64,000 nucleotides of DNA from Candidatus Woesearchaeota archaeon (GCA_043812195.1 JBDRML010000001.1:3857-67856); one strand, 5' to 3'; counted from the stretch's first letter, positions 5,562-63,587 are shown. Numbers and translations are program-made. Notes: generated from the letters alone by a model not told the origin.

Positions 5562-6188
5562 ATGGACAAAAAAGAGGCTAATAAAGGTTCTATCAAAAAA
5601 TCCAAACAAAAGTACAATATTTACTATCTCTCTATGGATGATATGAACAAGATAATAAATGTCGCCAAATCACTCAGAGATTCATTAGTATTAAAAATAT
5701 TAGCTAGAACTGGAATGAGGAGATTTGAATTATGCAATCTTAGAATACAAGATGTAGACTTTACTAAAAAGAGGATATATATACCAAAAGCAAAAGGAAA
5801 CAAACCAAGAACAGTACCAATAGATCAAGACACACTCCAAACAGTAAAGTTTTACATTGGGTCAAGGCAACATGGAAAACTCATTCAAAGCAACAAAAAA
5901 GATGTTGATGGGTTGGATGAAAGTAGAATTAATGCAATAATGAAGAATACAGCAGAAAAGGCTGGAATAAAACATCCAGATCCAATTAAAAAACATATGA
6001 ATCCTCATATATTCAGACATAGCTTCATTAGACATCTAATTAAGGTGGGTATGCCTCCGAATTATGTACAACAAATAGCAGGGCACTCAGATATCAGGAC
6101 AACACTACAAATGTATGGGATACCTGGTATAGAAGACATACAAGAGAAATATGATCAAATTGTAGAATCTTTTTACACAACAACATAA
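5562..6188 (+). CDS. tyrosine recombinase/integrase, short form (catalytic domain only)
   Basis: catalytic signature in order: R (ARTGMRRFELCNL), HxxR (HIFRHSF), Y (GHSDIRTTLQMYG); 208 aa, so it lacks a long N-terminal core-binding domain. Confidence 0.75.
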   Translation: MDKKEANKGSIKKSKQKYNIYYLSMDDMNKIINVAKSLRDSLVLKILARTGMRRFELCNLRIQDVDFTKKRIYIPKAKGNKPRTVPIDQDTLQTVKFYIGSRQHGKLIQSNKKDVDGLDESRINAIMKNTAEKAGIKHPDPIKKHMNPHIFRHSFIRHLIKVGMPPNYVQQIAGHSDIRTTLQMYGIPGIEDIQEKYDQIVESFYTTT

Positions 6189-6244: not shown

Positions 6245-6607
6245 ATGAAAAATAAAGGAGTATCTAACACAGTAAGAATCAAAATACTAAAAAGAGATAA
6301 CTATGAATGCCAAAAATGCGGAGAAGCAGATAAAACAAGCAAAACACTAGAGATACACCATGTAAATCCATTTTATCAAAGCCACGACGACAGTTTTAAT
6401 AATCTAATCACATTATGTTCAACTTGCCACAAATATGCTCCCAATTCTACAGAAGAGTTTCAAGGGTATATATCTGATCAAATTAGTGCAATCGCGACGG
6501 TATTGTCTAAAATATTTAAAAAAGTTATAGAAGAATATACCGACAAGGAATGGGAAGGACTTGAGCAAGAAATAGAAAAAGAACAGAAACTTCCTATCAA
6601 TACTTAA
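6245..6607 (+). CDS. HNH endonuclease
   Basis: CQKCG...HHVNP...N..LCSTCH HNH/zinc-finger motif. Confidence 0.75.
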   Translation: MKNKGVSNTVRIKILKRDNYECQKCGEADKTSKTLEIHHVNPFYQSHDDSFNNLITLCSTCHKYAPNSTEEFQGYISDQISAIATVLSKIFKKVIEEYTDKEWEGLEQEIEKEQKLPINT

Positions 6608-7051: not shown

Positions 7052-7747
7052 ATGAGAATATTTACAAATATATTTAGGAAAAGAACAGCAAAAAAAGCAA
7101 GATCAACTTTCCAAAACCTAAAACTGATAGATACTACTACTGGAAATTATGAAGATTTTTATGAAAAATTATCAAATAAAAGCCTAATTTTATTAATTAC
7201 AGGAAAAAGAGGAAGTGGCAAAACAGCGTTAGGTATGAAACTATTAGAAATTGCAAATTATACAGGAAAACCATGTTACGCAATCGGATTTCAAGATTCA
7301 AAATTACCAAGATGGATAATAAAATCAAAGAGTTTAGAAGAAGTAACAAATAATTCAGTGGTGCTTGTTGATGAAGGGGGAATAGTATTCAGTTCTAGGG
7401 AAAGCATGGGATCTTCAAATAAATGGCTCAGTAAACTAATGGCAATAGCACGTCATAAAAATATAAGTTTATTCCTAATAACTCAAAATTCAGGAATGAT
7501 AGATCTCAATGTGTTGAGACTTACAGATACAATTATACTAAAAGAACCAAGTCTACTACAATCAACTTTTGAAAGAAAAGCCATAAAGGAAAAATACGAA
7601 GAAGTTAGTAAAATATTCAAAAAACAAGATGAAAAAAGTTCTAAATTTTACATTTGGGATGATGATTTTGAAGGATTAGTAAAATTTGATTTACCTCCCT
7701 TTTGGAATCAATCAATAAGTAAAAGTTTTAGTAAATTAAAAAAATAA
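7052..7747 (+). CDS. P-loop NTPase (Zot-like / plasmid-virus assembly ATPase-like)
   Basis: Walker A GKRGSGKTA and Walker B VVLVDEGG. Confidence 0.55.
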   Translation: MRIFTNIFRKRTAKKARSTFQNLKLIDTTTGNYEDFYEKLSNKSLILLITGKRGSGKTALGMKLLEIANYTGKPCYAIGFQDSKLPRWIIKSKSLEEVTNNSVVLVDEGGIVFSSRESMGSSNKWLSKLMAIARHKNISLFLITQNSGMIDLNVLRLTDTIILKEPSLLQSTFERKAIKEKYEEVSKIFKKQDEKSSKFYIWDDDFEGLVKFDLPPFWNQSISKSFSKLKK

Positions 7748-22552: not shown

Positions 22553-22580
22553 GTAGCGAGAGGTGTCTCGCACTCTTATT
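22553..22580 (+). repeat. palindromic cassette-boundary repeat, copy 1 (GTAGCGAGAGGTGTCTCGCACTCT...)
   Basis: matches consensus GTAAGCGAGAGGTGTCTCGCGCTCTCTTTTAGATAAG; hairpin GCGAGA-GGTG-TCTCGC. Confidence 0.85.
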
Positions 22581-24101: not shown

Positions 24102-24107
24102 TTTTAT

Positions 24108-25166: not shown

Positions 25167-25197
25167 GTTTAAAAACAAGTAATTCTAAAATTAATTC

Positions 25198-26196: not shown

Positions 26197-26327
26197 AAAT
26201 TCCTCCAGACATCATTTCTGGAATAATTAAAAATTGGCATATAAATTTGGAAAAGAAAATTTTCTAAAAGAGGGTTAGATATTATTTTCCAAAAAATACT
26301 TAAAACATAGACAATTCCTATTAAAAC

Positions 26328-27560: not shown

Positions 27561-27577
27561 TATTTTGTAGAGAAATT

Positions 27578-27826
27578 TCATTTTTTCTTAATCAATAAAA
27601 CTATCATCCCAATTAAACCAATTATAAATGCTATGGGTGCTATTGGAACCGAAACAAAGAAAAATATTGTGCTTAAAATCTCAAATAAATATTTTAATAT
27701 AAATATATCTTCAAATATTATTCCTAAAGCATAAAATAAGTTATGTAGTAATACTGAAACAAAAAATAAAATAACAGATCCAACAGTTAAGATTACAAAC
27801 TTTCTAAATTTACTCAACTTTTTCAT
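27578..27826 (-). CDS. small membrane protein
   Basis: two TM helices. Confidence 0.4.
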   Translation of the reverse strand: MKKLSKFRKFVILTVGSVILFFVSVLLHNLFYALGIIFEDIFILKYLFEILSTIFFFVSVPIAPIAFIIGLIGMIVLLIKKK

Positions 27827-28137
27827 TTTAATTTAACGGCAGTACCATAAGCTAATATTTCTGCAGCACCAGTCATAACCATTGAAGTCATAAATCTTAC
27901 ATTTATGATTGCATCTGCGTTTAGTTTTTCAGCTTTATCAGTCATTCTTTTCAGTGCAATCTCTCTTGCTTCGCTTAACATTTCAGTATATTGCTTTATT
28001 TCTCCACCAATTATTTGTTTAAAGCCAGCTATAATATCTTTTCCTATATGTTTTGCTTGAATAACATTTCCCTTTACTAATCCTAAGTTTTCTGTTACCT
28101 TTTTATTTGGTATATAATCTATGTTTGTTATTATCAT
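27823..28137 (-). CDS. YbjQ/UPF0145-family protein
   Basis: MIITNIDYIP...GKDIIAGFKQIIGGEIKQYTEMLSEAREIALKRM...ADAIINVRF matches the UPF0145 family. Confidence 0.8.
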   Translation of the reverse strand: MIITNIDYIPNKKVTENLGLVKGNVIQAKHIGKDIIAGFKQIIGGEIKQYTEMLSEAREIALKRMTDKAEKLNADAIINVRFMTSMVMTGAAEILAYGTAVKLK

Positions 28138-28397
28138 GGTTTTAAATCCTCCTTGTTTATTTTTTTAAGATCTTTATCATCTTGAATTCTTTCTTTTATT
28201 AGAGAGATTAATATTAAGATAGTTCCTATTCCCATTAATACAAAACTTATTCTTAGTATAAATAAGAATAGACCATCATCTTCCATTTCTCCATCCTCTT
28301 CAAAATCTCCGAAAAAAATTGGATAAAATGAAACTAATATGATTATTATTAAGCCTAAAAGAAAGATTATTGCTCCTGTAACTGTTAGTTTGTTCAT
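28134..28397 (-). CDS. small membrane protein (start trimmed to the internal Met)
   Basis: the first 22 codons of the track ORF are the reverse reading of repeat copy 3 (MRARDTSRLL), so the true start is probably MNKLTV at 28397. Confidence 0.4.
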   Translation of the reverse strand: MNKLTVTGAIIFLLGLIIIILVSFYPIFFGDFEEDGEMEDDGLFLFILRISFVLMGIGTILILISLIKERIQDDKDLKKINKEDLKP

Positions 28398-28435
28398 AAT
28401 TTTAGTATTTAAAGATATGTTTAAAAATGTTTTGA

Positions 28436-28465
28436 GTAAGCGAGAAGTATCTCGCGCTCTCACAA
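28436..28465 (+). repeat. palindromic cassette-boundary repeat, copy 3
   Basis: GTAAGCGAGAAGTATCTCGCGCTCTCACAAG. Confidence 0.85.
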
Positions 28466-28472
28466 GAGGTTT

Positions 28473-28754
28473 GTGCTTAGAAAAGGATATTCAGATTACT
28501 CAAAAAAGAAAAAATCTGTAGAAATAGGGAAGGTATGTATAAAAAAAGGAGATAAGATACTATTAATTGATGATATTTTTGAAAGCGGAGGCGTTGGTAG
28601 GGCAACTATACATCTAATTGAAAAACTTGGAGGAGAAGTGAAAGGAATTTTTACAGTATTTAATAAGTTAGATAAAACAGGTGAAAAATATTTTAAAAAA
28701 TATAATTATCATTATTTAATAAAATTAGAAAAAAAGAAGAAAGATATTAAGTAA
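28473..28754 (+). pseudogene. phosphoribosyltransferase C-terminal fragment (truncated at the repeat)
   Basis: PRPP-binding motif ILLIDDIFESGG is present but the N-terminal ~100 aa of a PRTase are missing; the fragment begins directly after repeat copy 3. Confidence 0.55.
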
Positions 28755-28780
28755 GCGAGAAGTATCTCTCGCTCTCCTAA
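28751..28780 (+). repeat. palindromic cassette-boundary repeat, copy 4
   Basis: GTAAGCGAGAAGTATCTCTCGCTCTCCTAAG. Confidence 0.8.
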
Positions 28781-28821
28781 GAACCAAAAGATTTATATAG
28801 TTAGTAAGATTAGTCTTACTT

Positions 28822-29097
28822 GTGATTAAAATGGATATTGCTATAACAAAAATGAGTTCAAAAGGACAGATTGTAATACCGTCTGAGATGAGAGAAGATA
28901 TACCAGAAGGTGAAAAAATGATAATAATAAAAGATAAAGGAAAGATAATAATGAAAAAAGCAAGCGACATGGACAAACAACTAAACGAAGATTTAGAATT
29001 CGCTAGAAGGACTGAAGAAGCATACCAAAGAATTGAGAGAGGAGAAGGAATCAAGATGGATTTTGATAACTTTATTAAAGAGATAAAGAAATGGTGA
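28822..29097 (+). CDS. AbrB/MazE/SpoVT-type antitoxin
   Basis: MSSKGQIVIPSEMREDI swapped-hairpin motif; overlaps the downstream toxin gene. Confidence 0.6.
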   Translation: MIKMDIAITKMSSKGQIVIPSEMREDIPEGEKMIIIKDKGKIIMKKASDMDKQLNEDLEFARRTEEAYQRIERGEGIKMDFDNFIKEIKKW

Positions 29098-29336
29098 ATG
29101 TTATATTTGATCCTATTTTTAAAAAGAAATTTATGAAAATAAAAGATAAACAATCAAAAAATAAGATAATAAAACAAATCCAAAAAATAAAAGAAAACAC
29201 AGAGATTGGAAAACCAATGAAATATAGCAGAAAAGGCAGTCGAGAACTTTATGTTTTTCCATTTAGACTATCTTATATGATTAAAAGTAGCGAATTAATT
29301 TATATTTTAGACATTTATCATAAAGATGAACAATGA
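29091..29336 (+). CDS. RelE/ParE-family toxin
   Basis: 81 aa; ...RELYVFPFRLSYMIKSSELIYILDIYHKDE resembles the RelE/ParE C-terminal pattern; a 7-nt overlap with the antitoxin gives a typical type II TA operon. Confidence 0.55.
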   Translation: MVNVIFDPIFKKKFMKIKDKQSKNKIIKQIQKIKENTEIGKPMKYSRKGSRELYVFPFRLSYMIKSSELIYILDIYHKDEQ

Positions 29337-29397
29337 TAAAGATTTATTTACTATTCTCAAAACCAACATAGATTCTAAATATTAATTTTTATAATAA

Positions 29398-29428
29398 GTA
29401 AGCGAAAGGTTTCTCGCGTCCTCTTAGA
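29398..29428 (+). repeat. palindromic cassette-boundary repeat, copy 5
   Basis: GTAAGCGAAAGGTTTCTCGCGTCCTCTTAGAAAG. Confidence 0.8.
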
Positions 29429-29469
29429 AAGCTTTTTAAGCTTTTTTTAAACTCTATAAAAAGGGTAAG

Positions 29470-29477
29470 GAGGAATT
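29470..29477 (+). promoter_or_regulatory. Shine-Dalgarno-like aaggagga upstream of 29482
   Basis: taaggaggaatttaaaATG. Confidence 0.4.
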
Positions 29478-29481
29478 TAAA

Positions 29482-29949
29482 ATGAATGGAATACAAAAAG
29501 GATTAGCAACATTAGCTACTGTAGGAACATTAGGATTAGGTTTGAGTTGTGGTAAACCAACTAAACCAAGAGATACAAACAGCGGCAATAATAATACTAG
29601 TTATACTTTAGACACAAAAATTAAGAAATTAGAAGTAGTACATCGTGGTGGAGGATTGTATTACCTTAACGTTATAGTTGAAGGAACACCACATAATAAA
29701 GTAGACAAATTCCTTGTTTATATTGATAATGAAGATGATAGACATGCATTTGGTGGATCAGATTATACTTTTAGTAATGGAACTGCTTCAGCTCGTATGT
29801 TTATCCACTGTGGAAGTATTGAATATCCATATTATCAAGATGAAACAGCTAGCTGTCCAGGAACACATAATTTTGTAATTGCAGCATATAACATAATGGA
29901 TATAAATGCAGATAAAACACCGGCAAGAAAAACATATAGGATACCTTAA
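29482..29949 (+). CDS. lipoprotein
   Basis: signal peptide plus lipobox LGLSCG. Confidence 0.55.
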   Translation: MNGIQKGLATLATVGTLGLGLSCGKPTKPRDTNSGNNNTSYTLDTKIKKLEVVHRGGGLYYLNVIVEGTPHNKVDKFLVYIDNEDDRHAFGGSDYTFSNGTASARMFIHCGSIEYPYYQDETASCPGTHNFVIAAYNIMDINADKTPARKTYRIP

Positions 29950-29996
29950 AAATCTTGAGTTCAAACTGGAAATTATAACTGTGATGACTGAAATTG
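29950..29996 (+). pseudogene. remnant 3' end of a Cys-rich precursor-peptide gene
   Basis: aactgtgatgacTgaaattgtagtgattaaatat versus the intact gattgtgatgacGgaaattgtagtgattaaatat at 44145-44180; a G>T change creates a stop. Confidence 0.5.
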
Positions 29997-30153
29997 TAGT
30001 GATTAAATATAGATTAAAGCCAACTAAAGATAAAAGATTAAAATCCAATTTTATTAGAAAATTAAATAGTTATTTGAATAGATTGGAAAGATAGTAAGTA
30101 ACATACATTCAATTTAATAAAATTTTTATATTATACAAAATTCATCTTTTCAT

Positions 30154-30345
30154 ATGACAGATAAGAAAATAGAAGATATACTTTCTGAATGCGAATATTG
30201 TGAAAAAAAAGAAGCTAGAGAAATAAAAAGAGAATGGAAAGAGTTAATTTCACCATATTATACAGAGCTTGTGGCAGATTATGAATGCAAATCCTGCGGT
30301 AAAAACTATTCAAGAATTCTAAAAAGGGATATGCGCTATAAATAA
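30154..30345 (+). CDS. small zinc-ribbon protein
   Basis: CEYC...CKSC. Confidence 0.45.
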   Translation: MTDKKIEDILSECEYCEKKEAREIKREWKELISPYYTELVADYECKSCGKNYSRILKRDMRYK

Positions 30346-30390
30346 GCCCAAAAAAATCCCAACCTTTAAAAAACCAACCAATCTCAAAGT

Positions 30391-33300
30391 ATGATGGACT
30401 GGAGTTTATTCAATAAAAAAGAGTATTTAGAACCTTTAGTATTTTCTAATGGAAAATCACAATTAGATGTTGTTAAAGAAGTAATACAAGCAATTAAAGA
30501 AGGACATAAGATAATTTTCATAAAAGGTATCTGTGGCACAGGTAAATGTCTAGAAAGAGATTCCAGCGTATTTTGTAAACCAAATAATGAAAATCATTTT
30601 AGTTATCATAAAATTTCGGAGTTAGTTGGGAAGGGAGGAGATATTTTAGCTCTTGATAGAATGGGAAAAATCACAGAGTCTAAGTTTAAAAATGTGAGAA
30701 ATACTGGTATTAAAAAATTATACAAGATAAAAACAAGAACTGGAAGAGAAATAGTTGCTTCAGCAAATCATCCATTACTTACTATAACAAAAGAAGGGAT
30801 AGAATGGCTGCCCTTAGAAAAACTAAATAATTATTCCTATATTTGTCTTCCAAATAAAATTTCTTTTGGAAGAGAATTAGATTATGATAATGATAAGATT
30901 AAAATTCTTGCCCATTTAATTGCAGAAGGTAAATTAGGGGACAAGGCTGGGTCTCCAATTTATTTTCAAAGTCCAAGTAAAAACCCAGAAATAAGAAAAG
31001 ATTATATCTCTTCATTAAGAAGAGCATTCCCAGATGGAGAAATAAAAAGCTATTGTGAAAAAGATGTTGCTATTGTTTTTAGAAATATGAACACAACTAA
31101 AGGAGCCACAAACAAACTAAGACTTTTCATTAGGGAGCATGGGTTGGATAAAAAAAAGTCCAGCCAAAAATTTATACCCAAAATAATATTTAATTTAAAA
31201 AAAGAAAAAATTTCTTTATTTTTAAGTAGATTGTTTTCTTGTGATGGAAGTATCTATCAAAAAAAGAAGGATGGCCAAATAACTATTGAATATTCTTCTA
31301 TCTCAAAAAGATTAATTCAAGACGTTTCTCTTTTACTTCAAAGATTTGGGATCCAACATACAATTACTTCGAAAAAATTTAAAGAAAATAAAGAATATGC
31401 TTGGATAATTTGTATTTCAAATCACAACTCTCTTAGAAAATACATAGATGAAATTGGCTTTGTTGGTAGAAAACAAAGATTAGCTTTGAAATTATACAAC
31501 AAACTAAAAATACATAAATTTACCAATATTGATAAAGTTCCAAGAGTCATACGTGAATATTTAAAAAAGAAGGGATATAACTATACTGAACTCGATAGAT
31601 TTTTAAATTACGAAAAAATTGAAGAATCTAGAAAGAAAAAAAGTTTTAAACAGATAAGAAAAGATAAATCAATAGAAACTCCTTTTGTATTTAATCAACA
31701 AAAAATTGATTTTTTAAGAAGCCATATTAAAAAAATAAATAATTATATCAAAGATGACACTCTTTCTTTTATTTGCAATGAAGATATCTTTTGGGATAAA
31801 GTAAAATCAATTGAATATATAAAAAAAGATGAAACTTATGATTTAGAAGTTCCAAAAAATCACAATTTTATTGCGAATGGAATCATTGTTCATAATTCTG
31901 CCATTGCATTAAATATAGCTAAAGAAATCGGTAAAACATCTATTGTAGTCCCAGTTAAACCATTGCAAAAACAATACGAAGAAGATTACACAGATAAAAT
32001 GTATGTTCTAAAAAAAGATGGTAAAAAATTAAAAATAGCCATTATTGATGGAAGAAACAACCATAGATGTATCTTTAAATCAAATTGCATGGCAGATGAC
32101 AGATATATTCCATGTACTATTGAAATAAAAGAAGATAACCTTAACTTACTAAAAGAATACCTACACCAAAATAAATTTGTAAACACCAAAGGCTTCAAAA
32201 AATTAAAAGACATCAGAAGAAAATCCATAGCACCTGCATGCCCTTATTGGTCTCCAATTTTACACAAAGATATGTTTGAACAAGATTATAGCATAGAAGA
32301 CGCAGAAGAAATAAATTATCAAGGTCTTCAAAACAAAACATTCACTTATTTCCAAAGAGAAAAAGGCTGCAAGTATTACAACCAATTCTTAAATTACCTT
32401 AATTCAGATGTTATTGTATTTAATAGTAAGAAATACGAACTTGAAAATTTAATGGATAGAAAACCAGCAACAGAAATAGAAATAATAGATGAATGTGATG
32501 AATTTTTAGATAATCTTGCAAATGAAAAAAAAATAAACCTAGATAGACTATCACTGGTGCTTTCAAATGTAAAAACTAAAGATTTCGATTTAAAAGAAAT
32601 AACAATAGAAATTAACGATTTAGTTCTTGAATTATTAAATGATAAAAAAATCTCTGAAAAAGAAATATTTCCAATCAAAAAAACTAAAATCTATCCATTA
32701 TTAAAACATTTCACATCAAATGCAGGATTAATCGATTTAGAAGAAGAAGAAACAGATTATTTATACAATGTATATCAAACAGGAAAATCTTTTGAAGATT
32801 ACTTTGATGAAACCTATGTAACATTTTATAGAAATGATAGAAATGAATTATTAGTTAATATAATTACAGTAGATCTTGAAAAAAAATTAAAAGAGTTCTT
32901 AGATAAAAATAAGGCTTTTGTAATGATGAGCGGAACTATCCATTCTGAAATGATATTAAAAGAAGTTTTCGGAATTAAAGATTTTAAGATAATAGAAGCA
33001 GAAGTAAATCCAATTGGCAAAATCAAAAAAATAAGAACAAAATTAGAAAAATGTTTTGATTATCAAACTTTAAAACAAAATGGAGCTAGAGAAGCATACT
33101 TAGATGCTCTTTCTAGAGCTGTAGAAGTAGCTGAAAAACCGGTTTTGGTTCATGTGAATGCATTTAAGGATTTGCCATCTAAGGAAGAGTGTTTACGGTT
33201 TAATATTTCAAATTTGAAAACCAAAGAAGAGCTTATGATCGAACAAAATGAATATAGGCGTGGTGAATTAGTCAAAAAATTTAAAGATAAGGAAATTGAA

Positions 33301-33576
33301 GTTCTTTTTTCAACTAAATGTAATAGGGGCGTAGATTTTCCAGGTGAAATTTGTAATAGTATTATATTCACAAAATATCCATATCCTAATGTAAGTTCTT
33401 TATTTTGGCAAATATTAAAGAAAAGTAAGCCTGAATATTATAGTATGTTCTATAAAGATAAAGCTGAAAGAGAATTCTTGCAGAGAGTTTACAGGGGTCT
33501 TAGGTCAGAAAAAGATCATATAAACATTTTAAGCCCGGATATTAGGATTTTGAATTCCATTGGGTTGGTTAAGTGA
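30391..33576 (+). CDS. XPD/Rad3 (DinG)-like Fe-S SF2 DNA helicase, intein-containing
   Basis: Walker A GICGTGK|...|S is interrupted by an intein; 4-Cys cluster (HRC, SNC, IPC, PAC); DEAH-like IIDECDEF; C-terminal RGVDFPG helicase motif. Confidence 0.7.
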   Translation: MMDWSLFNKKEYLEPLVFSNGKSQLDVVKEVIQAIKEGHKIIFIKGICGTGKCLERDSSVFCKPNNENHFSYHKISELVGKGGDILALDRMGKITESKFKNVRNTGIKKLYKIKTRTGREIVASANHPLLTITKEGIEWLPLEKLNNYSYICLPNKISFGRELDYDNDKIKILAHLIAEGKLGDKAGSPIYFQSPSKNPEIRKDYISSLRRAFPDGEIKSYCEKDVAIVFRNMNTTKGATNKLRLFIREHGLDKKKSSQKFIPKIIFNLKKEKISLFLSRLFSCDGSIYQKKKDGQITIEYSSISKRLIQDVSLLLQRFGIQHTITSKKFKENKEYAWIICISNHNSLRKYIDEIGFVGRKQRLALKLYNKLKIHKFTNIDKVPRVIREYLKKKGYNYTELDRFLNYEKIEESRKKKSFKQIRKDKSIETPFVFNQQKIDFLRSHIKKINNYIKDDTLSFICNEDIFWDKVKSIEYIKKDETYDLEVPKNHNFIANGIIVHNSAIALNIAKEIGKTSIVVPVKPLQKQYEEDYTDKMYVLKKDGKKLKIAIIDGRNNHRCIFKSNCMADDRYIPCTIEIKEDNLNLLKEYLHQNKFVNTKGFKKLKDIRRKSIAPACPYWSPILHKDMFEQDYSIEDAEEINYQGLQNKTFTYFQREKGCKYYNQFLNYLNSDVIVFNSKKYELENLMDRKPATEIEIIDECDEFLDNLANEKKINLDRLSLVLSNVKTKDFDLKEITIEINDLVLELLNDKKISEKEIFPIKKTKIYPLLKHFTSNAGLIDLEEEETDYLYNVYQTGKSFEDYFDETYVTFYRNDRNELLVNIITVDLEKKLKEFLDKNKAFVMMSGTIHSEMILKEVFGIKDFKIIEAEVNPIGKIKKIRTKLEKCFDYQTLKQNGAREAYLDALSRAVEVAEKPVLVHVNAFKDLPSKEECLRFNISNLKTKEELMIEQNEYRRGELVKKFKDKEIEVLFSTKCNRGVDFPGEICNSIIFTKYPYPNVSSLFWQILKKSKPEYYSMFYKDKAEREFLQRVYRGLRSEKDHINILSPDIRILNSIGLVK
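30547..31896 (+). other. intein (450 aa) with LAGLIDADG homing-endonuclease domain, inserted in the helicase P-loop
   Basis: starts with Cys after GTGK, ends ...IIVHN followed by Ser; LAGLIDADG blocks ILAHLIAEGKLGD and LFLSRLFSCDGSIY. Confidence 0.8.
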
Positions 33577-33616
33577 TTTATTTTAGCGAGAGGTGTCTCG
33601 CGCTCTCTTTTAGATA
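33514..33616 (+). repeat. palindromic cassette-boundary repeat, copy 6 (long form; 5' part is the helicase 3' end)
   Basis: core TTAGCGAGAGGTGTCTCGCGCTCTCTTTTAGATAAG at 33583-33616; the upstream 60 bp is shared with copies 7, 12, 13 and 17. Confidence 0.85.
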
Positions 33617-33656: not shown

Positions 33657-33974
33657 ATGGGAAAAAGAACAACAGAATTTGTTTTGGGACTGCTTGGAGG
33701 AATTTTTGGTTTTGGAACTGCTTTCTTTGGGTTTTTTTTTAGTTTAATTGCTACAGAAATAGGTGGCTCTATCCCTTGGATATTTGCTGGTTCTATAGTT
33801 GCTATTGTTGGGTCTGTATTTGTTAAATCAAAAGCTAAAATCGGAGGGATTATAATGCTCCTAGGTGGGATTACAATACTTATTTCTAGTGGTTTATTTG
33901 GAATATTACCTTTTGTATTATTATTTATAGCTGGTCTTATGGGATTAATTAAGAAGGATGGCAAAAGAAAATGA
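33657..33974 (+). CDS. small Gly-rich membrane protein
   Basis: 3 TM helices; + strand preferred over the overlapping antisense ORF 33578..33964 because of the ATGA coupling to the next gene. Confidence 0.45.
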   Translation: MGKRTTEFVLGLLGGIFGFGTAFFGFFFSLIATEIGGSIPWIFAGSIVAIVGSVFVKSKAKIGGIIMLLGGITILISSGLFGILPFVLLFIAGLMGLIKKDGKRK

Positions 33975-34720
33975 AACTTAATCTTTTAATATTTTTATTT
34001 TTAATTATGGTTGGTTTATTTTTTATAAGTGGTTGTCAACCTAATGTTAATCCTGAAATTAAAGAAGGATGTACTTCAGATAGTTGTATAAGTTCAGAAT
34101 TTATTTCATGCGAACAACAACAAAATGGGATTTATATAGGAATAAATAAAGGTAAAGTTGTTGGAAAATGTGAAGTTGAATGTTTATCAAATGATGACTG
34201 TTTAAGTAATCAAGAATGTGTAGATAGTAAATGTCAGATAATTGAAGAAAGTATAATACAAGGTCCAGGATTTAATAGAGACACTCCATTATCTTTAAAT
34301 ACTCTCGGAGAAATTACAATGGGTTATGAATGGAGTCAGTTAGCAAATATAAAAATAACTATAAGTGGAATTAAGAGGGGAAGTTCTGCATGGTCTATGA
34401 TTGAAGAAGCTAATATGTTTAATGATGAACCCCCTTCTGGAAAAGAATATTTATTAACTAAAATTAAAGTTGAAGTTATAAGTACTTCCGATAATAATGC
34501 ATATGACCTAAGTTCTTATAATTTTGATGCAGTTTCTAGTAGCGGAATTGTTTATGATAAAACTTATGTTGTTGAACCCGAACCTAGTTTCGGCGGAGAA
34601 ATTTACTCTGGAGGCATGAAGGAAGGTTGGAAAACTTTTGAAGTAAATGTCGGAGATACAACACCTTTATTGAGAGTAAGTGGTGCTAATGATAAAGATT
34701 TGTGGTTTAAACTTTATTAA
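33971..34720 (+). CDS. lipoprotein
   Basis: lipobox FISGC; Cys-rich N-terminal region. Confidence 0.55.
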   Translation: MKLNLLIFLFLIMVGLFFISGCQPNVNPEIKEGCTSDSCISSEFISCEQQQNGIYIGINKGKVVGKCEVECLSNDDCLSNQECVDSKCQIIEESIIQGPGFNRDTPLSLNTLGEITMGYEWSQLANIKITISGIKRGSSAWSMIEEANMFNDEPPSGKEYLLTKIKVEVISTSDNNAYDLSSYNFDAVSSSGIVYDKTYVVEPEPSFGGEIYSGGMKEGWKTFEVNVGDTTPLLRVSGANDKDLWFKLY

Positions 34721-34810
34721 AATTAAAAAGAAAAAAAAGAATCATTTTCTATAGCCCTAACTGTTCATAATATTGTGAGTTCCTCCTGGGGCTTCGAACA
34801 AAATTAAAAA

Positions 34811-34908
34811 GATAATATAAATATTTTAAGTCCAGATATTAGGATTTTGAATTCTATTGGATTGGTTAAGTAAGCGAAATGTGTCTAGCGCTCTCTTTTA
34901 GATAATCT
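34811..34908 (+). repeat. palindromic cassette-boundary repeat, copy 7 (long form, intergenic)
   Basis: gataatataaatattttaagtccagatattaggattttgaattctattggattggttaagtaagcgaaatgtgtctagcgctctcttttagataatc. Confidence 0.85.
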
Positions 34909-34936: not shown

Positions 34937-35377
34937 ATGACCCCAAAATACCTATGGCATGGCTCCACAAAAAAAGTTAATATCATTAAACCTTCAAAAG
35001 CCATAGATTTATCTAAACATCCAGATAGTAATAGAAAAGGAGTCTATGCTACCGATTTAAAAGAGCTTGCAATAGAATTTGGTTTAGCAGATAAAAAATT
35101 ACATAAATATGCAGATTATAGTAAAAAACCAGTTCAAATTGTACTTATAGAAGGAGATATAAGAAAAGGCAAGAAATTTTATTTATATAAACTTAAAAAT
35201 AAAGGATTCAAAGAAATGCCCAAAAAATCACATCAATGGGTATCTTTCAAAGAAATAAAACCATTAAAAATTGAAGAATTAAATGTTGATGATTATTTAC
35301 ATTTGATTAGAAAAGCAAATAAAAAAGATAAAGAGTATTATTTTAGTCTTATAGGAAAGTTTAAAAAAGTTAAGTAA
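34937..35377 (+). CDS. hypothetical protein
   Basis: ORF track; the cassette ends at repeat copy 8. Confidence 0.4.
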   Translation: MTPKYLWHGSTKKVNIIKPSKAIDLSKHPDSNRKGVYATDLKELAIEFGLADKKLHKYADYSKKPVQIVLIEGDIRKGKKFYLYKLKNKGFKEMPKKSHQWVSFKEIKPLKIEELNVDDYLHLIRKANKKDKEYYFSLIGKFKKVK

Positions 35378-35410
35378 GCGAGAGGTGTCTCGCGCTCTCT
35401 TTAGTAAGCT
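35374..35410 (+). repeat. palindromic cassette-boundary repeat, copy 8
   Basis: GTAAGCGAGAGGTGTCTCGCGCTCTCTTTAGTAAGC overlapping the stop codon. Confidence 0.85.
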
Positions 35411-37113: not shown

Positions 37114-37809
37114 ATGAGCAATAAAAAAGTATATTTTGAAAAAAGCAGAGAAAAAGAAGAAAGAAATTATTATATGATGGCTAATTTTAAATGTGGCCCT
37201 ATTTCTCGTGGTAATTTTTTTGATGAAGAATTTACTAAAAAAATAAAAAATAAAAAATTCGAAGACGTAAGAGATATAATAAAACAAAAAATAAAAAAAG
37301 ATTACGAATCGCTGACATTCGATTTAGATGGGTTTCTTAGAAATGCTAAAAAAGAATGGAGCAAGGTCGAAGAAGAATATCTTAAAAAATTAGAAAAGAT
37401 TATGCAAAAGCCATTTTTAGCCAACAAAGTAATTTGCTACTCAACAATTCTCCCAAGATGCAATTATTGGTATAAACTGCCTTGTCCATGGTTTAAGCTT
37501 AGTATCCTCTATCCTAAAAAAAAATGGAACCAGGTGTGTATGCACGAAATAATGCATTTTATGTTCCATTGGCACTACTGGGATTCCTGTAGAAAACATT
37601 TAAATGAAGAGAAAACTTGGCACTTAAAAGAAGCATTAACATTTATACTCAATGAAGAATTTTCAGATTTATTAAAAGAAAAAGATATTGGATATCCTCC
37701 ACATCAAGAATTAAGAAAGAAATTACTTAAGATTTGGAAAAAAGATAAGGATTTTAAAAGTTTTTTAGATAAAAGTATCAAAGTTATGAAAATGTGGAAA
37801 ATTGAGTAA
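37114..37809 (+). CDS. HExxH-motif protein (putative metallopeptidase)
   Basis: HEIMHFMFHWH; occupies the same position as the HExxH gene in the paralogous module at 44180. Confidence 0.45.
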   Translation: MSNKKVYFEKSREKEERNYYMMANFKCGPISRGNFFDEEFTKKIKNKKFEDVRDIIKQKIKKDYESLTFDLDGFLRNAKKEWSKVEEEYLKKLEKIMQKPFLANKVICYSTILPRCNYWYKLPCPWFKLSILYPKKKWNQVCMHEIMHFMFHWHYWDSCRKHLNEEKTWHLKEALTFILNEEFSDLLKEKDIGYPPHQELRKKLLKIWKKDKDFKSFLDKSIKVMKMWKIE

Positions 37810-38549: not shown

Positions 38550-38573
38550 GCAAGTGCTCTCTTTGAGATAAAT
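38541..38573 (+). repeat. degenerate cassette-boundary repeat, copy 10 (hairpin deleted)
   Basis: ggttggtaagcaagtgctctctttgagataaat keeps the GGTTGGTAAG and CTCTCTTT-AGATAA flanks. Confidence 0.55.
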
Positions 38574-39094
38574 TAATCTACATATGCTTTTAAATACCCT
38601 GTTTTTGTATGAGGAAGACCACCAACCCCTACATAATCAAATACAATATCAGCTTTAAATAAACTTCCAGGTATCCCAATATATCCATCGCCACAATCGT
38701 CTGATCTCCAGGTAGTTAATACATCAGCTGGCATAGTATCTGATTCTGTTCCCATGCATCCTGTAACACATGAGAGTGTACAAATAACTTCACCACCATC
38801 AAATCTTATTACGGCCGGGGTTGTTATTATCACATTTACAGAGTAGATATCATCACCAATACCATTTCTTAAATCAAGCGTTATTCTATCATTATAACCA
38901 TCTAGGTATTTTACTAAATAGTCATCACAAAAGATTCCAGGTGTTATCACACATTTTCCAGATGCAAGAGTTGGGTAACTATTTTGGAGATTTGATATTT
39001 TATTTTCTGATTCAAATGAAATTGCCAGCACAATAAAAGGTATAACAAGAATAGAAATTATAATAATAGGCAATATAAAGTATCTTTTTTTCAT
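38573..39094 (-). CDS. secreted protein
   Basis: signal peptide. Confidence 0.45.
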   Translation of the reverse strand: MKKRYFILPIIIISILVIPFIVLAISFESENKISNLQNSYPTLASGKCVITPGIFCDDYLVKYLDGYNDRITLDLRNGIGDDIYSVNVIITTPAVIRFDGGEVICTLSCVTGCMGTESDTMPADVLTTWRSDDCGDGYIGIPGSLFKADIVFDYVGVGGLPHTKTGYLKAYVD

Positions 39095-39137: not shown

Positions 39138-39175
39138 GTAAAGCGAGAAGTGTCTCGCGCTCTCAATAGTAAGGT
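39138..39175 (+). repeat. palindromic cassette-boundary repeat, copy 11
   Basis: GTAAAGCGAGAAGTGTCTCGCGCTCTCAATAGTAAGG. Confidence 0.85.
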
Positions 39176-39211
39176 TTATAAATAGTAATTTGGTTTTGAA
39201 TTTTAGTAAAA

Positions 39212-39481
39212 ATGAAAAAATATACACCAATAATAAAAAATATAGTTGCAATAGTTGATTTAGAAACTAGTTTAGATTTAGAGAGCCTATCAACTCAACT
39301 AGAAAATGTTAGTGAATACAATAAAACAAAATTTCCAGGATTATGTTTAAAATCAAAAATCCCCGGATTATCTTATCTTCTATTTGAAAATGGAAAGGTT
39401 GTTTTAACAGGGGCTAAATCTGAAGAAGAATTACAACAGGGAACTGAATATATATTACACATTTTGAAGGATAATCTTTAA
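39212..39481 (+). CDS. single-repeat TBP-domain protein (half-TBP)
   Basis: IKNIVAIVDLETSLDLESLSTQL...FPGLCLKSKIPGLSYLLFENGKVVLTGAKSEEE matches one TATA-binding-protein repeat (IxNIVa..dL...ldL....FPGL..r...p.....iF.sGK.v.TGAKs.e); only 89 aa, so it is a single repeat. Confidence 0.6.
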   Translation: MKKYTPIIKNIVAIVDLETSLDLESLSTQLENVSEYNKTKFPGLCLKSKIPGLSYLLFENGKVVLTGAKSEEELQQGTEYILHILKDNL

Positions 39482-39508
39482 TAGTTAATAAAACTTTTCT
39501 CTAACAAA

Positions 39509-39596
39509 CATATAAACATTTTAAGTCCTGATATTAGAATTTTTAATTCTAAGTTGGTTAAAAGTAAGCGAGAGGTTTCTTGGGTTCTCTTAAAAA
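39509..39596 (+). repeat. palindromic cassette-boundary repeat, copy 12 (long form, right hairpin arm degenerate)
   Basis: catataaacattttaagtcctgatattagaatttttaattctaagttggttaaaagtaagcgagaggtttcttgggttctcttaaaaaaagc. Confidence 0.8.
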
Positions 39597-41102: not shown

Positions 41103-41675
41103 ATGAAAAAGAAAAGGCAAAAACCATGGGAAACAAAATTAATTGAAAAAATTATTGATGTTACTGGTTATTGTTTTCCTGGAGCGGAAGAAGAAGCATT
41201 GAAGCAGTTTAACAAAGTAAAAGCTAAAGAAATTTCTGTAATGCGAACTAAAGTAGATTTTGATCGTGGTTTTCAAACATGGTTTTTATTAAAATATTTA
41301 ATCGAAGAAAAATTTACACCAATGGAAGTTATTTCTGGAAACCCGTCAAATTATTTTACAAAAAGAGAATTGCAAATGGTTGATAACTTTCTCAATAATA
41401 AAGAGGGCTTTTATGAAATAATATCCATCTCAAGAGACAAAAAAGACTTTACCATAAAGAATGTTATGAATAGCGAGATTATTTCTGTAAAAACAATTGA
41501 TTTTCCCAACAAATTAAGTAAAGGAGAACATATTTATACAATTCCTGTGCAAAAGCTTGATGGAAACTATTTCTTTTACGGCAATGTAACATGTTATTCA
41601 AAAGAGAATTGTGTAGATATTGTAAATCTTACAAAGATAGAAAAAGCACATAGGTTAAGTTTATATGAGAGATGA
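41103..41675 (+). CDS. hypothetical protein
   Basis: ORF track. Confidence 0.4.
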   Translation: MKKKRQKPWETKLIEKIIDVTGYCFPGAEEEALKQFNKVKAKEISVMRTKVDFDRGFQTWFLLKYLIEEKFTPMEVISGNPSNYFTKRELQMVDNFLNNKEGFYEIISISRDKKDFTIKNVMNSEIISVKTIDFPNKLSKGEHIYTIPVQKLDGNYFFYGNVTCYSKENCVDIVNLTKIEKAHRLSLYER

Positions 41676-41985
41676 ATTAGTCAAAAAATTTAAAGATAAG
41701 GAAATTGAAGTTCTTTTTTCAACTAAATGTAATAGGGGTGTAGATTTTCCAGGTGAAATTTGTAATAGTATTATATTCACAAAATATCCATATCCTAATG
41801 TAAGTTCTTTATTTTGGCAGATATTAAAGAAAAGTAAGCCTGAATATTATAGTATGTTCTATAAAGATAAAGCTGAAAGAGAATTCTTGCAAAGAGTTTA
41901 TAGAGGTCTTAGGTCAGAAAAAGATCATATAAATATTTTAAGTCCAGATATTAGGATTTTGAATTCCATTGGGTTGGTTAAGTAA
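41665..41985 (+). pseudogene. duplicated 3' fragment (106 codons) of the XPD-like helicase gene
   Basis: translation is identical to the last 104 aa of 30391..33576; nucleotide near-identity with 33259-33576; followed by repeat copy 13. Confidence 0.75.
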
Positions 41986-42015
41986 GCGAGAGGTTTCTCG
42001 CGCTCTCTTAATTAA
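41983..42015 (+). repeat. palindromic cassette-boundary repeat, copy 13
   Basis: GTAAGCGAGAGGTTTCTCGCGCTCTCTTAATTA. Confidence 0.85.
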
Positions 42016-42666: not shown

Positions 42667-42700
42667 CTTAGCGAGAGCTTCTCCCGCGCTCTCTTTAGTA
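42667..42700 (+). repeat. palindromic cassette-boundary repeat, copy 14
   Basis: TTAGCGAGAGCTTCTCCCGCGCTCTCTTTAGTAA. Confidence 0.8.
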
Positions 42701-42762: not shown

Positions 42763-44025
42763 ATGAAAATACTAAAAAGCCCTATTTCAGTTCACTATGA
42801 ATTAACTGAAAATTGCAATCATCGTTGCGAACATTGTTATAATCCCTTTGCGCATATTTCTGAAGAAGTTCCAAAATTAACAAGAGATAGAATAATAGAA
42901 GAATTAGTACAAAATGAAGTATTTCATGTTATCCTTACTGGAGGAGAACCATTATTTTATCAAGATATGGCTGTAGATGCTGTAAAAAGATTAAATAAAA
43001 ATGGAGCTGTTGTTTCTTTAAATTCAAATTTAACTTTAATGGATAGAAATACTGCAGTCTCACTTAAAAAAGCAGGTCTAAAAAGTGCCCTAACTAGCAT
43101 AACTCACTATGATCCAAATATTCATGATAAAATTACTAAAATAGATGGAAGTTTAGAAAGATGTATTTCTGGAATTAATTATCTTGTAAATCAAGAAATA
43201 CCTGTCTCAGTAAATATGGTCGTAACAAAAGACAGAGTTGACGATGTTTACAAAACAGGAGAAATGTTAGTAGATTTAGGTATTACAGGTTTTTCAGCAA
43301 CAAGAATGGCGCCAAACAGAGATAATCTAAAAGAAATTTTAGATGCTCAAGAAGTAAAACATATGTTAGATCAATTATTATTATTAAAAGAAAAATACGG
43401 CATTAATGTTTCAAGCTTAAACAATCTTCCAAGATGTTTTAGTTCTGACAAAAAATATGGGATATTTATGAATAGATCTTGTAATGGTGGAAGAACAAGT
43501 GCAACAATAACTCAGATAGGTGGATTAAAATCTTGTCATCATTTAGATGAAGTTGTTGGAAATATAATAGAGGAAGGATTATCAACAGTTTGGGAAAAGG
43601 CTCCAGTATTAAAAGATGAAAGATTGCCAAAAGGATGTTTAGCATGTGATGTAAATGAAAACTGTGCAGGAGGCTGTAGACAAACTGCAGAAGTTGTTAG
43701 AAACAAAAAAACAGGCCTAGATCCAATTGCAAGAGGAAAAGAACAAATAATAACCTTAGATCCACCAGAACTGCCAAATAAAGATAGCACATTAAGATTT
43801 ATGAAAGATACATTATATAGAAAAGAAAAAAATGGAGGGGTTTTATTTAGAAATCCAAGAAATTATGCAATATTAAATGAATCACAATATCAGTTAGCTT
43901 TAAAACTGTCAAACAACTCTTTTTCAATAAATGAATTGAAAGATTTATTTGGAAATGAATTAAGTTCCTTTATGGAAAGATTATACCAAAAAGGTTTAAT
44001 AGGGGAGGCAAAATGGAAAAATTAG
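42763..44025 (+). CDS. radical SAM/SPASM-domain peptide-maturase-like enzyme (paralog of 35523..36881)
   Basis: CNHRCEHC (CxxxCxxC); C-terminal CLACDVNENCAGGC SPASM-like. Confidence 0.8.
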   Translation: MKILKSPISVHYELTENCNHRCEHCYNPFAHISEEVPKLTRDRIIEELVQNEVFHVILTGGEPLFYQDMAVDAVKRLNKNGAVVSLNSNLTLMDRNTAVSLKKAGLKSALTSITHYDPNIHDKITKIDGSLERCISGINYLVNQEIPVSVNMVVTKDRVDDVYKTGEMLVDLGITGFSATRMAPNRDNLKEILDAQEVKHMLDQLLLLKEKYGINVSSLNNLPRCFSSDKKYGIFMNRSCNGGRTSATITQIGGLKSCHHLDEVVGNIIEEGLSTVWEKAPVLKDERLPKGCLACDVNENCAGGCRQTAEVVRNKKTGLDPIARGKEQIITLDPPELPNKDSTLRFMKDTLYRKEKNGGVLFRNPRNYAILNESQYQLALKLSNNSFSINELKDLFGNELSSFMERLYQKGLIGEAKWKN

Positions 44026-47008: not shown

Positions 47009-47878
47009 ATGTTAGGAAGAAATCATGTTTCAATTTCATTAGCTACAATTATGCCTTTCTTAATACCTCTTATCTTTTTAGAATCAAATAATTCAATAAT
47101 ATATGGTTTTGCTTTTTTAATATCTATTCTTGTTGGATCTCTGCTACCCGACGCAGACTGTGGAGGAAAATCAAAACTCTATTACGATTTTAACATATTC
47201 TACCAATTAATTATTCCAATTACCAAATTAACTGTTTGGACATTTAAACTTTCAAGTGTTAAAAAAAAGTTGTCTACAAAGTTTTCAGAATTACAAGATG
47301 TAAATCATGAACATAGAGGGATAATGCATTCACCCATAGGAACGATAGTCAGTTCTTTTTTGTTAACTTTAATTATTCTTATCATAATGACACTTATTGC
47401 TAAAACTAATCTATTATTAGTTTTAATTATCTTTCTAGGATTAATTATTGGACAAATTCTACATTTATTAGAAGATTCCTGCACTGTTACTGGGATAAAT
47501 TGGATGTTTCCATTTGGAAAAAAAGAATTAAAAGGGCAAATATACACATTTGAGTGGAAATATCAAAATAAAAAAGATATCCGGCCGATGATTTATGTTT
47601 ATTCCCTGGTGGCTGTGTCCATTATATCCTTATTAGTAAACTCATTTGGGGCTGTGAATAATCTTTTTTTATATTATTTAATAACAACAATCGCAGTTTT
47701 GATAATTTGGATAATAATTATCAAGATATCTCAAAGTCAGTCTATTTTTTGGTATAGAGACGCCGAAAAAATAAAACAAATACAAAAAAAACAAAGAAAA
47801 GCTTTAAAAAAATTTACAGGAATAAAAAGAAAAAAACACAAAAAAAGATCATATAAACATTTTAAGTCCAGATATTAG
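47009..47878 (+). CDS. polytopic membrane protein (metal-dependent hydrolase-like?)
   Basis: 6+ TM helices; LLPDADCGG; the 3' end runs into the long-form repeat. Confidence 0.4.
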   Translation: MLGRNHVSISLATIMPFLIPLIFLESNNSIIYGFAFLISILVGSLLPDADCGGKSKLYYDFNIFYQLIIPITKLTVWTFKLSSVKKKLSTKFSELQDVNHEHRGIMHSPIGTIVSSFLLTLIILIIMTLIAKTNLLLVLIIFLGLIIGQILHLLEDSCTVTGINWMFPFGKKELKGQIYTFEWKYQNKKDIRPMIYVYSLVAVSIISLLVNSFGAVNNLFLYYLITTIAVLIIWIIIIKISQSQSIFWYRDAEKIKQIQKKQRKALKKFTGIKRKKHKKRSYKHFKSRY

Positions 47879-47940
47879 GATTTTGAATTCTATTGGGGTA
47901 GTTAAGTAAGCGAGAAGTGTCTCTCACTTTCTTTTAGAAA
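47838..47940 (+). repeat. palindromic cassette-boundary repeat, copy 17 (long form)
   Basis: gatcatataaacattttaagtccagatattaggattttgaattctattggggtagttaagtaagcgagaagtgtctctcactttcttttagaaa. Confidence 0.85.
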
Positions 47941-48312: not shown

Positions 48313-48349
48313 GTAGCGAGAGGTTTTTCGCGCTCTCTTTTAGATAAGA
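48313..48349 (+). repeat. palindromic cassette-boundary repeat, copy 18 (last + strand copy)
   Basis: GTAGCGAGAGGTTTTTCGCGCTCTCTTTTAGATAAG. Confidence 0.85.
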
Positions 48350-63055: not shown

Positions 63056-63090
63056 TCAAAAGAGAGCGCGAGAAACCTCTCGCTTACTAA
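63056..63090 (-). repeat. palindromic cassette-boundary repeat, copy 19 (inverted orientation)
   Basis: reverse complement reads GTTAGTAAGCGAGAGGTTTCTCGCGCTCTCTTTTGA; abuts the truncated radC copy. Confidence 0.85.
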
Positions 63091-63587
63091 CAACAATCTC
63101 TAGGATGTACTAAACTACTATTCAAAGTCCCCACACTAACAACTTCTTCTTTAATAATTCTATTTTTAGTATCTAAACACAAACAAATAAAATACTCTTT
63201 CTTCTTATTTCCATATCTATCTCTTAATAACAAATAAACATCTTTAGCACTTCTAATAACTCTTTTATACCCATTATTTTTAGTTTTATTATATCTTTTA
63301 CTTAACTCAATCAAACTTAATAATTTCATAAGTTTCACATAATCTTTAGTTTCAACTTTATTTCTTTTATTTTTAATAAAATCTAAAATTTCCCTATTTC
63401 CCAATTCATCTATTTCATTTAAATTATAATTTTTAAGCAGTCTATTGCTTAATTCTAAAGCAGATTCACCTTTTTCCCCAATTCCAAAGATAATAGACAA
63501 TAATTCCGCACTATCTAAAGATTCAGCCCCATTTTTAAGAATTTTTGAACTAGGTCTGTTATAATTTGGAAGATCAAAGATTTTCAT
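63087..63587 (-). pseudogene. truncated second copy of radC (lacks the JAMM catalytic region)
   Basis: N-terminal 160 aa is paralogous to 59918..60625, including ~65 bp of shared 5' flank (ttcataaga(g/t)tttagaaacctaaaccagtttatataaatttatgagaagaaatagcaactaaa); the ORF ends exactly at the repeat. Confidence 0.6.

Follow-up and report, generated by a model that had tools for sequence, protein, structure and literature searches.

Repeat R and recurring 3′ ends of a Rad3/XPD-like helicase gene in a strain-variable region of a Woesearchaeota archaeon

Why should the last codons of a helicase gene recur at several places around that gene, each time running into the same short palindrome? The question is raised by a stretch of 64,000 nucleotides from a metagenome-assembled genome of Candidatus Woesearchaeota archaeon (GCA_043812195.1, JBDRML010000001.1:3857-67856), here called the window, which has a G+C content of 28%. 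It contains a gene for a Rad3/XPD-like helicase, and the stop codon of this gene is followed by a copy of a 23-nt palindromic repeat core, AGCGAGARGTDTCTCGCGCTCTC, which we call R. The best reading of our data is that R is a sequence-specific joint of small accessory modules in a strain-variable region around the helicase gene, found in one narrow Woesearchaeota lineage. The further copies of the helicase end would then be 3′ ends that once belonged to working helicase alleles or were imported from them, and not an extended form of the site. Coordinates are collected in Table 1, and R copies and helicase tails are named by their first position.

Copies of the helicase 3′ end

The helicase belongs to a family with 2193 homologues in Woesearchaeota and Nanoarchaeota, which measure ~600 aa without intein. 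Alignment and repeat finding recovered its 3′ end as five colinear stretches in the window, namely the gene's own end (to 33576) and four further copies of 58–323 bases, and the extensions do align, as an earlier note on this DNA had reported. All five ends run directly into R cores (33585, 34873, 39567, 41985 and 47909). The contexts described in that note were also found: tail 34806 is intergenic, lying between open reading frames (ORFs) 33971..34720 and 34937..35377; a YdjM-like membrane-protein ORF (47009..47878) runs into tail 47842 out of frame; and the 106-codon ORF 41665..41985 (MFH1376061.1) equals the helicase C-terminus over 104 codons. Tail 39509 starts 27 nt downstream of an ORF with a single TATA-binding protein (TBP) repeat. 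This ORF (39212-39481, 89 aa) corresponds to half of a normal TBP.

The copies had been described as nested 5′ truncations. Their lengths do vary, but they do not form a graded series. Tails 34806 and 47842 and a sixth copy, found in a new context in metagenome contig L054, share an identical first nucleotide (xAA AAA GAT..., where the helicase has GAA) 67–68 nt before the stop, in three contexts; tail 39509 starts ~8 nt later, and the remaining copy extends over 323 nt. The boundary of the short tails, which we call X, is sharp and lies at 33509/33510 of the gene (GAA/AAA GAT). No helicase homology was detected upstream of X in the short tails by local alignment against shuffles, a result that rules out decay in place of a true junction. 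A pseudo-R site at X was considered, because the sequence there resembles the left half of R (11/18), and dropped, as the junctions do not carry the expected R-left signature. Upstream of the 323-nt copy, GGTTAAGT was attributed to chance, the 8-mer also occurring at unrelated places. Finally, a miniature inverted-repeat transposable element of ~100 bp reaching from X to R was rejected, given that the tail is ancestral helicase coding sequence and that the interrupted genes do not resume past R.

The differences between the copies and the gene are of a coding type. The last 324 nt of the helicase and positions 41662-41984 share 96% identity over a 300-nt ungapped repeat pair, and this 323-nt copy carries 8 synonymous and 0 non-synonymous differences, for which we estimate P ~6e-6 with ~22% synonymous sites. 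Tail 34806 shows 3 synonymous changes and 1 non-synonymous change, and the changed codons of the short tails together are 8 synonymous and 2 non-synonymous. Moreover, the tail encodes RSxxDHIxLLSPDxRVL (in its longer form YRGLRSxxDHIxLLSPDxRVL), which is conserved in all 39 homologue C-termini inspected. Since these residues are kept in 39 of 39 homologues, the extension is helicase DNA of ancestral origin and does not belong to a mobile repeat. The near-purely synonymous divergence in turn indicates that the tails diverged inside working helicase genes and were then detached, or imported from other strains. As judged from these substitutions, the displaced tails can be taken to come from working helicase alleles and not from neutral duplicates.

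The resident helicase end reads ...GTTAAGTGAtttatttTAGCGAG, whereas all displaced copies read ...GTTAAGTAAGCGAG. The displaced tails have the ancestral arrangement with the TAA inside R, as in a sister species (contig L063), and the arrangement of the working gene is derived. The R cores under three of the four displaced tails are the most decayed ones, with 3–4 mismatches.

Copies of a gene 3′ end that adjoin a GC-rich hairpin also recall a diversity-generating retroelement, in which the helicase end would be the variable repeat and the copies would be template repeats accompanied by a hairpin like that for initiation of mutagenic homing. Such elements are common in DPANN archaea, which counts for this reading. 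The mismatches are, however, not adenine-specific (of the 8 sites, 3 have A in the copy and 1 has A in the gene), all 8 changes are synonymous, the target would be a conserved helicase motif, and the window contains no reverse transcriptase. The mismatch pattern effectively refutes a retroelement, to which we give practically no weight.

Repeat R and the exchange of DNA at its copies

The full R unit spans ~36 bp (TTRAGTA-AGCGAGA-RGTD-TCTCGC-GCTCTC-TTTTAG). Its core is matched 13 times in the window at up to 3 mismatches, against 0 expected, and nhmmer detects 17 copies. Sixteen of the 17 lie on the plus strand between 22.5 and 48.3 kb, irrespective of gene direction, and one lies on the minus strand at 63.06 kb; the profile search found no R in the core-gene stretches at 1–22 kb and 49–62 kb. 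The central GT, the arms and the non-palindromic GCTCTC are invariant, while loop positions 8 and 11 vary. The 3′ side is fixed, with a right boundary at about +10–14 nt, and left flanks are common to subsets of copies over 12, ~20, ~25, 58–68 or 323 nt, with TGATTTWATTTT, AAAAATGTTT...TTGAGTA and ATTTAAGGATTATGRT...TTAGTAA as left-flank families. A constant 3′ end with a variable 5′ extent, first noted for the helicase copies, is thus a property of the R family.

It had been proposed that the element spread from the helicase 3′ end. The tails are indeed helicase-derived, but R itself did not spread from there, because 12 of its 17 copies lack helicase sequence and others carry ends or fragments of other genes, such as a phosphoribosyltransferase (PRTase) tail and a truncated RadC gene. 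The PRTase tail with R28754 represents the same combination of gene tail and R for a second gene. Furthermore, three unrelated ORFs stop within the TAA of R.

A longer recombination site of ~95 bp, the other suggestion, is not borne out, as the one exchange that could be mapped (in contig L059, see below) falls in AAGCGAGA inside the core. Nor does the extension fold in the manner of attC: no significant fold was found (z = −1.8 to +0.6 for the long forms against shuffles), only the 6-bp core hairpin folds, and a 7-sequence alignment contains 0 compensatory pairs. With Rfam 15, only tRNA-Lys reached the gathering score in the window, and nothing matched over R at E up to 10 between 33300 and 35600.

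Could R be an ordinary intergenic signal, that is, a terminator or regulator site near promoters, with the rearrangements and tails produced by passive homologous or slipped recombination? A simple terminator scan rates R as terminator-like (6-bp GC-rich stem, 4-nt loop and T-run), its end precedes the next plus-strand start codon by 38–59 nt, with an intervening TATA-like box, in 10 of 13 cases, and the neighbouring genes are mostly on the plus strand. R nevertheless keeps its plus orientation beside minus-strand genes (R41985, R48315, R39142 and R46944), shows no compensatory variation, and occurs neither in the core-gene stretches nor in relatives at ≤69% helicase identity. Its copies are near-identical including the loop-adjacent and non-palindromic parts and the flanks, and near-identity beyond the palindrome indicates common descent, not convergent signals. 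R is also better conserved between the two R-bearing species than the helicase (~96–100% against 77%). A terminator or operator role is possible in addition; alone, it leaves the orientation, the clustering, the near-identity and the population junctions unexplained, and we judge such a signal quite unlikely to be the explanation.

These junctions come from a metagenome scan that yielded seven low-GC contigs from two related Joint Genome Institute samples (Ga0180007 and Ga0180009). Three of them (L055, L058 and L060) are 99.8–99.9% identical to the window. The population contigs depart from it at four R joints, among them those left of R28439 and right of R33585 and R63062: L061 has another left flank at R28439; L062, with a helicase 97% identical, departs right past R33585, with 48 nt of the alternative flank covered; and L054 departs at R63062, with a different, minus-oriented R array on the far side that includes the sixth helicase tail. 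In L059, the end of module B (41505-42007) is joined to the start of module A (39165-39822), followed by B again, consistent with either a circle junction or a tandem duplication; L060 from the same sample has the ordinary junction, in which gene 38573..39094 leads through R39142 to module A. The switch lies inside the 8-nt AAGCGAGA, since the left flank and AAGCGAGA come from R41985 and the loop, right arm and flank from R39142. Because these two copies are identical over only 8 and 12 nt around the switch, a k-mer chimera is unlikely, although one could still arise if the R copy of that strain differs. L059 also reproduces tails 39509 and 41662 independently. Taken together, the contigs show that DNA is exchanged, inserted or lost at R, and the position just past the helicase stop is probably one hot spot of this exchange.

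Such an arrangement invites comparison with integrons, and an archaeal integron, or an integrase-less cluster of attC sites (CALIN), would have R, alone or with the 67-nt extension, as attC recombined by IntI. Integrons and CALINs have been reported in Archaea, and specifically in Nanoarchaeota (PMC9668308). As in attC cassettes, the imperfect palindromes form a one-directional array and close, at the 3′ side, cassettes of one or a few accessory ORFs, some ORFs end in the site, the order varies among strains, an excised circle could account for one junction, and the GTTAAGT left of some R copies matches GTTRRRY. However, attC measures 57–141 nt and has paired R″/R′ boxes, whereas R has 23–36 nt and no RYYYAAC...GTTRRRY pair around its hairpin; GTTAAGT stands on the wrong side, 5′ of the hairpin, and has no RYYYAAC partner. 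It is not the crossover point either, since L059 keeps the GTTAAGT of its upstream partner and switches in AAGCGAGA; attC recombines at G/TT of the 3′ core site, and R in the left hairpin arm. A single strand of attC folds across the whole site, whereas the R extension does not fold. Unlike in integrons, there is a promoter-like box for each module, the near-identical copies occur in just two species, and no IntI is adjacent, the sole tyrosine recombinase being a catalytic domain of 208 aa that belongs to a plasmid-like region at a distance of 16 kb. An integron of the known type is very improbable.

The distribution of R is narrow. In one genome each of 185,579 species, among which the source species is not represented, a search with GCGAGANNNNTCTCGCGCTCTC gave no genuine R; the 53 single matches, in unrelated and mostly GC-rich genomes, were dismissed as chance, and viral contigs gave 0 matches. 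In the sister species L063, whose helicase is 73% identical, R stands on both sides of the helicase gene with the stop TAA inside R, and the R core is 96–100% identical between the two species against 77% for the helicase DNA. Relatives with 67–69% helicase identity (L064, L066, L068, L069 and L070) contain no R, tail copies or repeat arrays. The helicase is followed by the element in L063 and L062 but not in these relatives. Short helicase C-terminal proteins on longer contigs (P0129, P0134 and P0154) proved to be frameshifted genes or genes cut at contig ends and not displaced tails. In the literature, we found no description of such repeats in DPANN.

The surroundings of the gene vary in these relatives as well. 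The genes downstream of the helicase differ between genomes in two of the relatives at 67–69% identity. Two other Woesearchaeota genomes, L066 (11840-11910) and L068 (4080-4125), have a common, single-copy 48-nt element with a hairpin (TAGAAGTTCACTTCTTCTAC) right past the helicase stop; the genes after this element differ between the two, so that the helicase 3′ flank may be more widely variable. Another Nanoarchaeota metagenome-assembled genome (L073/L074, 713-1234) encodes, 0.5 kb past its helicase gene, a fragment (173 aa) of a large serine recombinase (PF07508). The gene order is topoisomerase, helicase, RadB in L071 (6040-11970), and topoisomerase, RadB, 8 kb of modules, helicase in the window (18644-33576); the helicase gene, which is bounded by R on both sides in the window and in L063, may have been relocated. 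Its intein is missing from the nearest homologues beyond the source population (P0002-P0010, 604–617 aa).

Modules, candidate enzymes and neighbouring regions

At least 16 R-joined modules are present in the window. The modules between R copies measure 0.3–5 kb and contain accessory genes, with a TATA-like box just past R. Their cargo includes three radical-SAM enzymes, a MazE-like antitoxin, a Schlafen/AlbA protein, a NosD-like protein and membrane proteins, together with gene fragments, namely the 5′-truncated PRTase tail, the single-repeat TBP ORF and a RadC copy cut at R63062. ORFs 34937..35377 and 33657..33974 have no exact protein match on record. The features are listed in Table 1.

Table 1. 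Positions of the helicase gene, its displaced tails, the R copies and the candidate enzymes in the window
Feature	Position	Strand	Basis and remarks
Rad3/XPD-like helicase gene, 1061 aa	30391..33576	+	Pfam Helicase_C_2, Intein_splicing, LAGLIDADG_3
Helicase intein with LAGLIDADG domain, ~450 aa, in P-loop/Walker A (GTGK/C...HN/S)	~30547-31896	+	Pfam
Recurring part of helicase 3′ end	33253..33576	+	Repeat finding (families D2, D3, D6), alignment
Displaced helicase tail, 67 nt, with decayed R core (34873-34895, 3 mismatches)	34806..34895	+	Repeat finding, alignment
Most degenerate helicase tail, 58 nt, with decayed R core (39567-39589)	39509..39589	+	Alignment, repeat finding; also in L059
Helicase tail, 323 nt, with intact R core (41985-42007)	41662..42007	+	Alignment, repeat finding; also in L059
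Helicase tail, 67 nt, with decayed R core (47909-47931, 4 mismatches)	47842..47931	+	Alignment, repeat finding, profile search
R, left edge of array, between RadB-like and B12/radical-SAM genes	22555..22577	+	Core match, profile
R; left flank TGATTTTATTT common with R33585	24110..24132	+	Repeat family D5, profile
R; left flank differs in population contig L061	28439..28461	+	Contig comparison, profile
5′-truncated phosphoribosyltransferase tail ending in TAA of R28754 (core 28754-28776)	28473..28776	+	Pfam Pribosyltran, profile positions 80-141 of 158
Degenerate R upstream of helicase	29401..29423	+	Profile search
R core after helicase stop; derived left flank TGAtttatttT	33585..33607	+	Core match, profile; strain contig L062 alike
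R; ORF 34937..35377 terminates in its TAA (...GTTAAGTAA)	35377..35399	+	Core match, ORFs
R; ORF 37114..37809 terminates in its TAA	37809..37831	+	Core match, ORFs
R; partner of R41985 in L059 hybrid junction	39142..39164	+	Contig comparison
Degenerate R with indel	42670..42692	+	Profile search
R; ~20 nt of left flank common with R28439	46944..46966	+	Repeat family D1, profile
R, right edge of array, adjoining 3′ end of minus-strand CAAX-protease gene	48315..48337	+	Core match, Pfam, profile
Only minus-strand R; truncates second RadC copy (63087..63587)	63062..63084	-	Core match, contig comparison
Free-standing LAGLIDADG ORF, 383 aa, two motifs; adjoins RadB-like gene, left of R22555	20687..21838	-	Profile scan
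Tyrosine integrase (MFH1376015.1), 208 aa, Phage_integrase catalytic domain only	5562..6188		16 kb from first R, plasmid-like region

Candidates for a catalyst acting on R are the tyrosine integrase and the free-standing LAGLIDADG endonuclease. The latter is possibly an enzyme that cuts R. The layout of R, with arms of 6–9 bp and a 4-nt centre (TAAGCGAGA-GGTG-TCTCGCGCT), matches what we take to be the layout of a LAGLIDADG-type target, a pseudo-palindrome of ~22 bp; the match concerns the layout only.

Another stray gene tail was seen besides those joined to R. The 39 nt at 44143-44181 encode the Cys-rich end (...DYDCDDGNCSD*) of a small ORF that follows a radical-SAM/SPASM gene (42763..44025) and resembles a precursor of a ribosomally synthesized and post-translationally modified peptide. 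The same end recurs at 29972-30010, 400 nt upstream of the helicase, at 90% identity and with a frame-breaking change. RadC is encoded twice, at 59918-60625 and at 63087-63587 on the minus strand, with 77–78% DNA identity; the second copy is without the JAB catalytic part, and its end coincides with the minus-strand R copy.

Two further blocks stand out. Positions 1-8150 and 9823-9899 form a plasmid- or virus-like block with iteron-like tandem repeats (2199-2265 and 2921-3012), winged-helix ORFs, the tyrosine integrase, an HNH endonuclease (6245..6607) and a Zot/STAND-like ATPase (7052..7747); the only tRNA gene of the window (Lys-CTT) lies near it. Between the array and the RadC genes, a defence-like block (50290-59934) encodes a CARF and winged-helix protein, a UvrD helicase fused to a PD-(D/E)XK/Cas4-like nuclease, and two ORFs of ~1000 aa that resemble, by eye, a methylase and a restriction helicase.

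Possible origin of the recurring helicase ends

How, then, would the helicase ends have come to lie among the modules? We favour, with about even confidence, a cassette region that is bounded by R and restricted to one lineage, and whose helicase 3′ end would have been duplicated or displaced by insertions made there. Each insertion beside the helicase would bring or leave the last 67 bp (once 323 bp) together with R and keep the gene intact; the superseded end would be pushed downstream, and the displaced R copies would then decay. Two breakpoints would be involved, one inside R in the AAGCGAGA arm and one at the sharp point 67–68 bp upstream of the stop. This displacement of gene ends is suggested by one 67-nt block in different contexts, by the coding-type divergence, by the ancestral position of the stop within R and by the decayed R on three of the four tails.

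Several observations weigh against it. Left of the sharp boundary there is no common motif, nor the inverted-repeat core expected of a site for a tyrosine recombinase. Modules with different cargo carry the same 67-bp block, which requires a second recombination point, or common ancestry with turnover of the cargo. The genes upstream of two tails are truncated or fused (the TBP half and YdjM), and untidy copying or repair fits this better. No recombinase was found among the 30 ORFs between 20.7 and 48.9 kb, and no integrase, transposase, reverse transcriptase or HUH gene in or beside the modules. The synonymous bias of the short tails is modest once a GC-to-AT mutation bias is allowed for (P ~0.01, our estimate). 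The alternative junctions come from short metagenome contigs, in which assembly chimeras through a 25–36-nt repeat are possible. Finally, the window contains no counterpart of the gene that follows the L063 helicase and could mark the ancestral flank.

The untidy junctions could instead result from polar copying. A recurrent nick or break at R, made by a homing-type endonuclease or a rolling-circle-type nickase, would be repaired by copying leftwards from another R and joined untidily, and the tails would be co-copied flanks. This would account for the fixed right boundary with left flanks shared over 12 to 323 nt, for the truncation or fusion of genes that precede tails or some of the R copies (YdjM, the TBP half and the second RadC), and for the junctions in A-runs; a free-standing LAGLIDADG ORF stands at the edge of the array, and the synonymous-only divergence is consistent with working alleles as templates. 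Yet three independent events would have to end at one nucleotide, copies of copies should keep the left context of their donor and none that do so were seen, and the window is devoid of HUH, Rep and reverse-transcriptase genes. On balance, we consider polar copying doubtful.

Genomic islands that target the 3′ end of a tRNA or protein gene offer a parallel, since they leave direct repeats of the targeted end and can accumulate in series. The island SGI1 integrates at the 3′ end of trmE and piles up in tandem (PMC8409611). The 3′ end of bacA carries a palindrome at which the island PAISt sits, and this island excises in modules (PMC4057263). As in these cases, direct repeats of the target 3′ end bracket the inserts, the gene stays intact (the helicase ORF is complete with its conserved C-terminus), the blocks are serial, internal copies of the site permit modular loss or gain, and a short palindrome marks the gene end. 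Unlike the islands, which have an integrase at one end, the blocks here measure 1.3–5.9 kb and carry no integrase or transfer genes, 12 further copies of the core site lack helicase sequence, the site is found to either side of the gene, and the left junctions are without recombinase core symmetry.

Other short-palindrome systems are the repetitive extragenic palindromic (REP) sequences and bacterial interspersed mosaic elements (BIME) with REP-associated tyrosine transposases (RAYT), the Neisseria dRS3 repeats and Neisseria intergenic mosaic elements, and the pdif modules of Acinetobacter plasmids. Like these, R is a short GC-rich palindrome between genes, a joint of mosaic modules and a substrate of rearrangement. 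Its hairpin is preceded by GTAAG or GTAG; a REP sequence would have a conserved GTAG-like tetranucleotide there and be dispersed throughout the genome. Unlike with REP and RAYT, the window has no RAYT or IS200-type (Y1 transposase) gene, and R has a single orientation instead of mixed or alternating ones. Within the 64 kb, its copies are also grouped in a single variable region instead of being spread out, and its host is an archaeon. In sum, the region is best read as a lineage-restricted variant of known insertion-hotspot and cassette systems.

A bolder reading, unlikely in our view, is that the R-bounded modules would constitute an undescribed, integron-like gene-capture and shuffling system of DPANN, with a 36-bp site that is not attC, an unrecognised enzyme, and cassettes made from gene 3′ ends and R. 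The enzyme would possibly be a domesticated homing endonuclease or a minimal tyrosine recombinase. If this were true, the fragments of the helicase, PRTase and RadC genes would capture the birth of cassettes, a process that, to our knowledge, is still unexplained in integrons.

How DPANN archaea, with their tiny genomes and their dependence on hosts, acquire and exchange accessory genes is poorly understood. In the window, the population contigs give evidence that the joints are in use, and the fossil gene ends would record serial insertions beside an essential gene. Should R be the substrate of a dedicated enzyme, the region would represent a second independent cassette platform beside integrons, in which intermediates of cassette formation are still visible. 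If there is no such enzyme, it would illustrate clearly how a short repeat can shape a variable island in an archaeon that has not been cultured.

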